Of a stretch of 7,671 nt of DNA, positions 5,067 to 6,806 are shown in pieces (position 1 is the first letter of the stretch; each line of letters starts with the position of its first letter). Source of the stretch: a virus. Taxonomy: Duplodnaviria; Heunggongvirae; Uroviricota; Caudoviricetes. The stretch lies in the IMG/VR virus record IMGVR_UViG_2713896785_000018; one strand, 5' to 3'. Made by a program: the position numbers and the translations under genes. The notes under the pieces are model-generated. The model made no database searches. It saw only the letters and a program-made list of their open reading frames with translations, and had not been told where the DNA came from.

Positions 5067-5285
5067 TCAGTTTTCCTTATACGGATTAATTTTATTGTGC
5101 AGTGCGCTGAATGATTCCCATGTCACATCGGTATATAGCTCAATAACTGGTTCAAATGTCCTTCCAATTATCCAGACCAGTAATAGCGGGGATATCGGTA
5201 TCATCAACACTATAAACAGAATGAAAAACAGAAACTCTGTTGTTCTGCTCTTTCGTGGGTAATTTTTTTCTAAATAATGTTTCAT
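5067..5285 (-). CDS. small putative membrane protein (72 aa, one predicted TM helix)
   Basis: Hydrophobic stretch FLFFILFIVLMIPISPLLLVWIIG. The stop is adjacent to the start of the DUF551 gene. An SD is present only across a hairpin (see next feature). Confidence 0.45.
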   Translation of the reverse strand: MKHYLEKNYPRKSRTTEFLFFILFIVLMIPISPLLLVWIIGRTFEPVIELYTDVTWESFSALHNKINPYKEN

Positions 5286-5291
5286 TTCTTA

Positions 5292-5313
5292 CCGCCCTTT
5301 CGGGCGGCCTCCT
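5292..5313 (-). promoter_or_regulatory. SD (AGGAGG) followed by a GC hairpin with GAAA loop, immediately 5' of the 5285 start codon
   Basis: Minus strand reads AGGAGG (5313-5308), then CCGCCC-GAAA-GGGCGG (5307-5292), then UAAGAA-AUG. There is no U-tract, so it is not a classic terminator. A second weaker hairpin GAGGG-9nt-CCCTC lies at 5322-5340. Confidence 0.3.
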
Positions 5314-5343
5314 GATGTTCTGAGGGTGCAGGAATCCCTCCGG

Positions 5344-5559
5344 TTAAGGATTTAATAAAAATCGTTTCTGATTTAAATCTTCAGTATTTAGTTNNNNNNN
5401 NNNNNNNNNNNNNNNNNNNNNNNNNNNNNNNNNNNNNNNNNNNGCGTTAAACTCTTCCGTTGAAATATATTCCCGACCATCACAGAATTTTTCATATTCA
5501 GGATGTGTCCAGTAGCCATATCCGTCACGAACTACCGGCATTTCTTTAATTTTACTCAC
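5344..5559 (-). CDS. hypothetical small protein (71 aa; internal 50 nt masked)
   Basis: GTG start at 5559 preceded by AGGAGG with 6-nt spacing, overlapping the end of the upstream ORF. The N run at 5394-5443 hides about 17 codons. No family recognised. Confidence 0.45.
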   Translation of the reverse strand: MSKIKEMPVVRDGYGYWTHPEYEKFCDGREYISTEEFNXXXXXXXXXXXXXXXXXXLNTEDLNQKRFLLNP

Positions 5560-5779
5560 TGTTAACCTCCTGCAACGCTACACGATACGCCTTCTTTATC
5601 CACGCCTTACTGCCATATAATTTCGTCTTCATAATAAACACACCTGCACGACTCGCCGATATCCCCGGACAGGTTAACAGCACAGCATCCACCACACGGT
5701 TATGCTTCCGAAACTCCATTACAGTACTGCTGATAACCACCTGCCCCACCGGGCCGTAATCCTGATACAGGATTTTCAC
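5552..5779 (-). CDS. hypothetical small protein (75 aa)
   Basis: GTG start at 5779 overlaps the TGA of the upstream gene (GTGA) and is preceded by AGGAGGG with 7-nt spacing. No family recognised. Confidence 0.5.
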   Translation of the reverse strand: MKILYQDYGPVGQVVISSTVMEFRKHNRVVDAVLLTCPGISASRAGVFIMKTKLYGSKAWIKKAYRVALQEVNSE

Positions 5780-6057
5780 GCAGACACCCTCCTGTCGAAA
5801 TAAACGTAGTTATTCACTATGCGCAGCGGCATGCCTAATTTTCTGGCAATTTCCCTTCTTTGCATGCCTCTCTGATGCAGTTGCCGCGCCAGCTCAATAT
5901 CACGCTGAGAATATTTTGCCGACGGGTGAAAATCACCACGTAACATCATGCTGATGCCCAGCTCCCGTGCCTTCGTTCTCACTGCCGCTTCAGTTCGTCC
6001 GATAAGTGCGCCAACGCTTTTTACCTTCCTCGTTCCCGCACACTGCCGGAGTATCAT
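5776..6057 (-). CDS. putative DNA-binding protein with two HTH-like segments (93 aa from ATG 6057)
   Basis: The track ORF (5776..6180) overlaps the upstream gene by 90 nt with a low-complexity N-terminus, so the internal ATG at 6057 is preferred. HTH-like segments are GTRKVKSVGALIGRTEAAVRTKARELGI and SQRDIELARQLHQRGMQRREIARKLGM. Confidence 0.5.
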   Translation of the reverse strand: MILRQCAGTRKVKSVGALIGRTEAAVRTKARELGISMMLRGDFHPSAKYSQRDIELARQLHQRGMQRREIARKLGMPLRIVNNYVYFDRRVSA

Positions 6058-6089
6058 GATTTCCGCCCGGCACCACGTCTTCCACCCAC

Positions 6090-6806
6090 TCACCGCTGCT
6101 GTTCTCTGGTGGCGGTAATATCCCGGAGAATATCCCGGCACTTGTTCAGCTCCCGCAGCGCGGCGCAGACTCGCTCCCACTTCTGAACCTGACCTTTTGC
6201 CCGGCGCAGCTCGCGGTTAGCCACATGCAGCGATGGTAAAATCAGACCATCCGGATGCTTTCTGGTGAACGACGGCTGTGACTGCACTGTGACCGCCACA
6301 CTTTCCGTTTTTATTTCTTCCTGTGTTTCCGCTTCCCCGACTGGTAACGCAACACCTGCTGGCTGAGGAAAGGCTTTACCATCCGTTTCCGCTATGGATG
6401 CGGCTTTCGGCTCTGCCGGTAAATCAGCGCCCGGTATGCAGTACCGAAATTTACCGCCCTGATTCACGCGAATCAGACGCCCTTTGCTGATTGCCATGGC
6501 CAGTGATGAATTCGCCCGGCGGGAGGTAATCCCGAACATCAGTGCCAGCTCATCCGCCGTTTGTGGGCCATGATGTTCAATCGCCTCAGTCAGCATTTGC
6601 GCTGTCACTTTCGGTACCGGTGACACTGGTTCACTTTCACCAGCCTGAATCAGCCACCACATCGAACCCTTGTTATCCGCTTCACCACGGCGCTTCAGTT
6701 TCCACAGTTCGTTGACAGCATCTTCGCGGCTGATTCCAAGGCGCGATGCCACTACCTGTGAAGAGGCTTTTTTCAGTGCTTTCAGTGCGTCAAATACAGT
6801 TTCCAT
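6090..6806 (-). CDS. phage protein with N-terminal winged-helix-like domain (238 aa from ATG 6806)
   Basis: The track start is TTG at 6824. The ATG at 6806 has GGAGGA 7 nt upstream and lies 21 nt after the DnaC-like stop. N-terminus: [43 protein letters not shown]. The rest has no recognised motif. Confidence 0.6.

Follow-up and report, generated by a model that had tools for sequence, protein, structure and literature searches.

Small genes between the helicase loader and hok/sok of a Rac-like lambdoid prophage as a probable series of exchangeable cassettes

We examined a block of small genes on the minus strand of a 7,671-nucleotide (nt) stretch of DNA from the IMG/VR virus record IMGVR_UViG_2713896785_000018, the whole of which is referred to below as the window. 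The window represents part of an Escherichia coli lambdoid prophage, and the block lies in it between a gene for a DnaC-like helicase loader and a hok/sok locus. We conclude that the block is probably an accessory early-right segment of a Rac-like lambdoid prophage, composed of independent, exchangeable cassettes that are read through from the replication genes. An earlier note, made from the letters of the sequence, had put forward positions 5067-6806 as a candidate for an undescribed system; this proposal did not hold up, as the prevalences and the neighbors of the genes, designated here A to F, differ in related prophages. The components of the block, in minus-strand order, are the following (aa, amino acids; ORF, open reading frame):

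6090-6806, minus strand: gene A, 238 aa, with GGAGGA 7 nt before the ATG
5776-6057, minus strand: gene B, 93 aa; the RefSeq start is identical, and the RefSeq name is "DNA-binding protein"
5552-5779, minus strand: gene C, 75 aa, with a GTG start overlapping the stop of B
5394-5559, minus strand: gene D, starting at 5559, with 38 codons visible (5444-5559) and the rest, together with 19 nt of spacer, under a run of N
5286-5393, minus strand: visible part of the spacer between D and E, holding the leader of E
5067-5285, minus strand: gene E, 72 aa, with a basic N-terminus and one predicted transmembrane segment, FLFFILFIVLMIPISPLLLVWIIG
4508-5065, minus strand: gene F, 185 aa, with a variable N-terminal part and a C-terminal DUF551 domain
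4428-4511, minus strand: hydrophobic ORF of 27 aa, MTWPEAFTTVGIAMAVALVVYSICRWG, its ATG overlapping the F stop (ATGA) and preceded at 7 nt by AGGAGG (4519-4524)

Six consecutive minus-strand ORFs had been listed in the earlier note, and for A, B, C, E and F both coordinates and lengths were correct; the remaining ORF, of 71 aa, is an artefact, and the 27-aa ORF was missed. The six ORFs are more than chance, because each of them matches a PHROG family, with E-values from 1e-21 to 1e-118. It had also been stated that none of the small proteins could be recognized, which turned out to be incorrect: three of them belong to Pfam families (DUF1627, DUF4014 and DUF551), and all six to PHROG families. 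Both the sequence and its gene families are thus already catalogued, the latter having entries in Pfam and PHROGs but no assigned function. A scan of all six proteins against NCBIfam gave no significant match, and sequence searches of the PDB with A, B, C, D and F found no relatives.

Prevalence was determined in 5426 complete E. coli genomes, of which 501 contain the whole block. Taken one by one, the genes are distributed as follows:

A: 2275 genomes, 5490 places, the most widespread gene of the block
B: 766 genomes, 1133 places
C: 529 genomes, 560 places
D: 780 genomes, 1202 places
E: 963 genomes, 1469 places
F: 995 genomes, 1910 places

Neighbors were compared in 285 IMG/VR loci (L004-L289, one id skipped; queries A, C, D and E) together with the annotated loci L001-L003, by clustering the ORFs of these loci and counting distinct sequence contexts. 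Of the contexts that contain A, 52 have B as the next gene, 35 a DUF977 gene and two C. B itself is followed in 30 contexts by C and in 21 by a nucleoside-deoxyribosyltransferase-like gene, and 22 of its 53 contexts lack C, D and E. C is followed by D in 16 contexts, by a putative methyltransferase-like gene (a label that is our own reading of the sequence) in nine, and by ten other genes besides. The gene directly before D is a Zn-ribbon gene (phrog_4030) in 33 contexts, against 12 in which it is C, and at least 12 different genes are found upstream of F. In prophage Rac-SA53 the same slot is filled by ydaW, LygF, rac19, ead, rac21 and the D-like rac22, and Ead/Ea22-like genes are among its alternative cassettes. 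Neither the equal prevalence nor the conserved adjacency expected of a multi-gene system was found: the genes are present in 529 to 2275 genomes, and there are alternative neighbors at every junction. Every junction is a recombination joint somewhere in related prophages, and the order ABCDEF is one common allele of a combinatorial cassette site, kept in about 500 genomes at 99% identity or more. The earlier note had suggested a check of synteny in related prophages to see whether the block moves as a unit; it does not. Base composition is uneven, with 57% G+C in A and 32% around the D/E spacer, a step that is expected of a mosaic.

These comparisons bear directly on the idea that the block, or B together with E, is one undescribed abortive-infection or superinfection-exclusion system, in which a DNA-binding sensor or regulator would control a small membrane effector. 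We consider this very improbable. It is true that A and B are predicted DNA binders and E carries one transmembrane segment, that the block occupies the slot of lambda ren and a gene of a Ren-like family is found here in sister prophages, that hok/sok lies just downstream, and that about 500 genomes keep the six genes together. However, B is present in 766 genomes versus 963 for E, and their neighbors differ; E occurs without A to D, as in phage ArgO145 and many IMG/VR loci, and B occurs without C, D and E in the 22 of 53 contexts mentioned above; and the two genes are separated in the block itself by two others and a 127-nt spacer. The DNA-binding and membrane proteins that had been combined into such a module are not co-inherited, and relatives of C and E occur without the other genes. 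In PADLOC-DB v2.0.0 none of the six proteins had a match below an E-value of 0.02; the best values, 0.02-0.04, concerned generic helix-turn-helix (HTH) regions of A and B, and C, D, E and F were left without any match. Finally, genes of a lytic early-right operon would be silent in a repressed lysogen, unlike defense genes with a promoter of their own, which argues against a prophage-borne defense and agrees better with functions exerted in lytic growth.

If the block is instead a row of independent cassettes, each gene has to be considered on its own. Gene A codes for a DUF1627 protein (PF07789, E-value 9.6e-79, 263 bits versus a cut-off of 28.1, model positions 1-155 of 155) and matches phrog_630 with an E-value of 2.5e-118. 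Over residues 1-139 it is 57% identical (BLASTP, E-value 1e-55) to YdaW from the Rac prophage of K-12, which is C-terminally truncated in comparison with A. An AlphaFold2 model, of low overall confidence (pLDDT, the predicted local distance difference test, 60), comprises helices at 4-39, a winged helix at 66-125 (pLDDT about 82), a disordered acidic linker at 130-185 and a C-terminal helix at 186-237; the N-terminal three-helix domain (residues 1-45) is modelled with low confidence. Residues 66-125 superpose on winged HTH (wHTH) domains of the ArsR, MarR and ST1889 types at 1.1-2.3 Å over 54-63 residues, and a Foldseek search of the PDB with the model gave only generic wHTH, MarR, ArsR and tandem-winged-helix ScpB-like matches, with a probability of 1.00 for 66-125 and none of them at an E-value of 1e-3 or below. 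In the model, these residues form a three-helix bundle with a beta-hairpin wing, and the winged-helix label given to the 238-aa protein by the earlier note is borne out by this predicted domain. The second winged helix has a weak partial match to the Ren-like family phrog_142 (E-value 5e-4), in which no stretch passes on its own.

The position of A invites another explanation, namely that it is a functional accessory of the replication module, such as an origin- or loader-associated DNA-binding factor, and that only the genes downstream of it are cargo. In each of the 91 distinct contexts examined, A comes immediately after the helicase loader; it would combine two winged-helix domains with a putative oligomerizing helix; and no other gene of the block is nearly as widespread. 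Yet the loader that precedes it may be either a DnaC/IstB-like AAA+ protein or a lambda P-like protein, two unrelated types, and the initiator genes differ as well, so that A is not tied to one machinery. The Rac prophage of K-12 keeps YdaW only in its C-terminally truncated form, the second winged helix is weakly Ren-like, and the sole phenotype reported for the family is the blocking of a retron toxin: a list of prophage genes that block the toxin RcaT of retron-Sen2 when overexpressed includes ydaW (bioRxiv 10.1101/2020.06.22.160242). On balance, a role of A in replication appears unlikely, and we prefer to regard it as the first of the cassettes. Apart from this screen, the only mentions of DUF1627 found in publications are as a synteny marker near the PasA/PasC small RNAs, which lie outside the block. 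DUF1627/YdaW is the candidate for which any functional hint has been published.

Gene B is located 32 nt from A and has a weak Shine-Dalgarno sequence. It matches phrog_323, "transcriptional regulator" (E-value 1.2e-21), and its residues 48-86 give sub-threshold matches to Pfam HTH_7, HTH_3 and HTH_23. B is a small HTH protein, predicted to bind DNA; of the two tandem HTH motifs that the earlier note had proposed for this 93-aa product, the second is detectable, and the first is suggested by the repeat pattern only. Matches of B to TPR/LGN repeats in the PDB were rejected as compositional, since no stretch passes on its own. The DUF977 gene that takes the place of B in sister prophages belongs to phrog_142, "Ren-like exclusion protein", with an E-value of 8e-47, which bears out the view of the interval between the DnaC-like gene and hok as a variable slot similar to that of lambda ren. 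This gene, of 135-140 aa and annotated as "LygF", was seen in L042 and about 35 other IMG/VR contexts and at 5154-5576 in Rac-SA53 (L002). Among the six proteins of the block, none has a full-length significant match to the Ren-like family (phrog_142/DUF977).

Gene C matches phrog_1001 (E-value 8.3e-38), a family of phage proteins of about 74 aa, and has no match in Pfam, NCBIfam, PADLOC or the PDB. The family is small: an exhaustive search of 1.84 billion proteins, used in place of a word-indexed search that had returned nine fragments only, yielded 42 representative homologues. Those with 56-61% identity belong to early-left operons, with genes for a DUF1233 excisionase and an integrase a few genes further downstream, and are preceded by a beta-clamp-like or a ParE-like gene, without any B-like gene. 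In E. coli-type loci, on the other hand, 29 of the 32 contexts of C have B directly upstream. The latter regularity, along with the 4-nt GTGA overlap between the two genes and the nature of B as a small HTH protein, could be taken to mean that B and C are a type II toxin-antitoxin-like pair, with an HTH antitoxin followed by a small toxin. But C has no similarity to toxin families in Pfam, NCBIfam or PADLOC, its homologues of 56-61% identity do without a B-like gene just as B does without C in 22 of 53 contexts, and 4-nt overlaps are found at most junctions of the operon whatever the partner. We therefore give such a pairing hardly any credence and regard B and C as separate cassettes.

In some phages of other hosts, a ParE-like gene of 75 aa (PF24732, E-value 1.3e-19) directly precedes the C homologue with a 4-nt overlap, in an early-left operon near the excisionase and integrase genes (L126-L128, L135, L136, L140, L142, L143 and L149; approximately 5777-6004 in L140). 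The pairing of a distant C homologue with this ParE-like toxin was considered and rejected, since C follows other genes in most contexts; a more likely partner of the ParE-like gene is the gene upstream of it.

Gene D is interrupted in the window by 50 N at 5394-5443. The apparent 71-aa ORF at 5344-5559, which the earlier note had counted among the small proteins, reads through this mask, and its C-terminal residues are translated spacer. The N run corresponds to 215 bases in E. coli O145 RM9872, whose sequence matches both flanks at 100% identity, and the true D in genomes with identical flanks is an acidic protein of 103 aa (WP_000034815). It belongs to phrog_1372; its homologues, from prophages across Enterobacterales, form 228 clusters in which 14 residues are invariant. 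A search of BFVD with a structure model, built from the cluster representative P0121 (93% identical to D), retrieved uncharacterized phage proteins only. In intact genomes, D is separated from E by an AT-rich spacer of 127 nt.

Gene E, correctly described as a 72-aa protein with a single transmembrane segment (one hydrophobic segment was found), is a full-length member of Pfam DUF4014 (PF13198, E-value 1e-24, 87.2 bits versus 23.2, positions 1-72 of 72) and of phrog_1832 (E-value 1.1e-44). A literature search for DUF4014 found nothing, and the origin of the PHROG label, "released from the phage upon host infection", could not be traced in the literature. The leader of E consists of AGGAGG (5308-5313), a predicted RNA hairpin CCGCCC-GAAA-GGGCGG (5292-5307) with a stem of 6-7 bp and a GAAA loop, and 6 nt before the ATG, so that 22 nt separate the Shine-Dalgarno sequence and the start codon unless the hairpin brings the two together. 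This arrangement is kept in front of E homologues with identities as low as 72-80% and with differing upstream contexts, and the two substitutions seen in the stem both preserve pairing as G-U. Other E homologues use instead an ordinary GGAG, 5-6 nt from the ATG. We take the layout of the leader to resemble that described for T4 gene 38. The D-E spacer was also considered as a terminator or promoter site and rejected: it has no terminator-like site, and the hairpin lacks a T run. E is present in the early-left operon of Shiga toxin (Stx) phage ArgO145, followed by an HNH gene and without A to D, and it lacks A to D in many IMG/VR loci as well; in L182, an E remnant is followed by a phrog_1714 gene and then by a DUF551 gene.

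Gene F was recognized from the outset as a DUF551 protein, and the domain was located at residues 115-181 (PF04448, E-value 5.3e-20, 72.5 bits versus 22, positions 1-68 of 68); the protein matches phrog_60 with an E-value of 1.7e-38 and has no Ead_Ea22 coiled-coil signature in Pfam. F is usually the last long gene before hok. It is full-length in only 503 of the 995 genomes with a match, indicating that its N-terminal part is exchanged. DUF551 is a portable domain, known from YfdS of the cryptic prophage CPS-53 (PMC4776307) and from variant V2 of Ea22 in Stx phages (PMC10834534).

The stretch with the 27-aa ORF, downstream of F, is found in 1376 of the 5426 E. coli genomes. The ORF has a length of 25-27 aa in 42 of 46 sequence variants and follows several different upstream gene ends, always with the ATGA overlap. 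It has no Pfam or PHROG match, and no separate coding sequence is named under the match among the 25 records listed; a conserved ORF with a strong ribosome-binding site is absent from current annotation. About 40 nt downstream of it lies the transcript region of hok/sok, a complete type I toxin-antitoxin locus (4212-4386 and 4062-4274, both on the minus strand) with an Rfam sok match of 113.5 bits and an ORF of the Hok/Gef family. In the Rfam scan, sok was the sole family found within reach of the block.

All genes of the block are on one strand, with overlaps at B/C (GTGA, 5776-5779), C/D (GTGAGTAA, 5552-5559) and F/27-aa ORF and a near-adjacent junction TGAtATG at E/F (5063-5069). The tight coupling described in the earlier note is as stated for B/C, C/D and E/F, and does not extend to A-B and D-E, with their gaps of 32 and 127 nt. 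Stop/start overlaps are normal across these operons whatever the neighbor, and give no sign of a system. The strong AGGAGG sites that had been pointed out are real as well: there are four in the window, all of them on the minus strand and 6-22 nt before the starts of C, D, E and the 27-aa ORF, yet their number is no higher than chance (four found versus 2.4 expected). The block contains no terminator-like sites and no convincing promoter, the two weak promoter-like sites comparing with 3.7 expected. With genes arranged head to tail and neither promoter nor terminator between them, expression would be of the delayed-early type, by read-through from the replication genes, and the stop/start overlaps may provide translational coupling at some of the junctions.

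The block is probably the positional equivalent of lambda ren and the start of the nin region; with the 27-aa ORF added to A to F, it has seven small and separate genes. A to F would behave as cassettes rather than as subunits of one machine, several of them being encountered also in early-left operons of other phages. A and B could bind DNA or act as winged-helix/HTH adaptors; D, whose small size and acidic character are typical of phage proteins that bind to host proteins, may do likewise; E and the 27-aa peptide would presumably insert into the inner membrane; and F may serve as a carrier of the portable DUF551 domain. The most probable common theme, modelled on lambda Ren and Rac YdaW, would be modulation of host physiology or defenses in the course of lytic growth. 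A more specific version, which we offer as a tentative and rather doubtful one, is that the slot after the loader is a counter-defense hotspot, in which one or more cassettes, foremost A and the acidic D, inhibit a host abortive-infection or toxin defense, and the 27-aa peptide is membrane-active.

Several observations weigh against independent cassettes with such functions. About 500 genomes keep all six genes at 99% identity or more; the block has been inherited together in that lineage, and functional interaction among some of its members is conceivable. C nearly always comes after B in E. coli-type loci (29 of 32 contexts). The IMG/VR sample consists of the 80 best matches per query, many of them near-duplicates, and its contexts are distinct sequences, not independent events. 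Read-through and translational coupling are deduced from anatomy only. The ydaW screen is a preprint and concerns the truncated K-12 protein, whose place among the 11 re-tested hits is not established (bioRxiv 10.1101/2020.06.22.160242). It should also be noted that the block as found matters little, being identical to prophage DNA in hundreds of sequenced genomes of enterohemorrhagic E. coli (EHEC) and forming no system. The stretch from the loader to hok, however, is a well-defined and highly combinatorial cassette site in Rac/Sp-type prophages, with a Ren-like gene among its alleles, which makes it a reasonable place to screen single genes for anti-defense or host-takeover activity.

With respect to the surrounding DNA, positions 4450-6900 are 100% identical to the chromosomes of E. 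coli O145:H28 and other EHEC, save for one masked stretch. The order on the minus strand is loader, A, B, C, D, E, F, hok/sok, a YgiW-like gene, DUF968, RusA and a DUF1133 Q-like gene. The DnaC/IstB-like loader (6828-7574, minus strand, 248 aa) is intact in the window and 80% identical to YdaV from the Rac prophage of K-12. In O145 RM9872 (L001, 8544-10459) the DnaC-like loader is cut short by an insertion of the IS3 family, indicating that the window derives from another copy of this type of prophage, one that has decayed less. The window contains four runs of N, each of exactly 50 N (993-1042, 2255-2304, 2617-2666 and 5394-5443), under which alignment to a near-identical O145 record places 24, 86, 117 and 215 true bases; the runs keep neither length nor reading frame. 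They split the DUF968 gene into apparent ORFs at 2190-2699 and 2507-3256, which in the intact record are one gene of 349 aa. Since the masks make false ORFs, readings across them are unsafe.

Two further features were noticed downstream of the Q-like gene. A gene of 237 aa at 25-738 (minus strand) is annotated as "helix-turn-helix domain-containing protein"; from its sequence we take it to be AraC-like, and it presumably resembles the prophage-encoded EHEC regulators of the Psr/PatE type. Just downstream of the Q-like gene, at 1221-1294 (minus strand), Rfam gave a weak, non-significant match to isrK (19.8 bits versus a gathering score of 50, E-value 0.72).

Comparison with known systems shows partial likeness to each of several regions. 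F has DUF551 in common with YfdS of CPS-53, overproduction of which together with YfdQR contributes to inhibiting DnaA-dependent initiation, and loss of which results in sensitivity to H2O2 (PMC4776307); there are, however, no yfdQ or yfdR homologues in the window, and the N-terminal half of F is unrelated. The exo-xis/ea region of lambda and Stx phages houses E, F-like DUF551 proteins and relatives of C in other phages, and the Stx-phage Ea22 variant, from a family described as mosaic, carries DUF551 as its C-terminal domain (PMC10834534). In the window, by contrast, the genes belong to the early-right operon, after the replication genes, and F is without the Ead_Ea22 coiled coil.

In lambda, ren and the nin region are non-essential genes between P and Q. 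The block shares with them its location in the early-right operon, downstream of the loader gene and upstream of the RusA/Q-like genes, and its composition of small, tightly packed, dispensable-looking genes, with a Ren-like family in the second slot of sister prophages. It differs from them in that none of the six proteins is a significant member of the Ren-like family, no homologues of NinB to NinH are encoded at 4428-6806, and the downstream module consists of DUF968, RusA and DUF1133 as opposed to ninB to ninH. As for the Rac group, the Rac prophage of K-12 has lost all genes after the truncated ydaW, and Rac-SA53 has LygF (DUF977), rac19, ead and rac21 where the window has B and C, and is without E and F. 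Both, nevertheless, start with the same type of loader followed by a YdaW/DUF1627 gene 57-63% identical to A, and in Rac-type phages there is likewise a string of small genes that ends at hok, in which a rac22-like gene corresponds to D at 91% identity.

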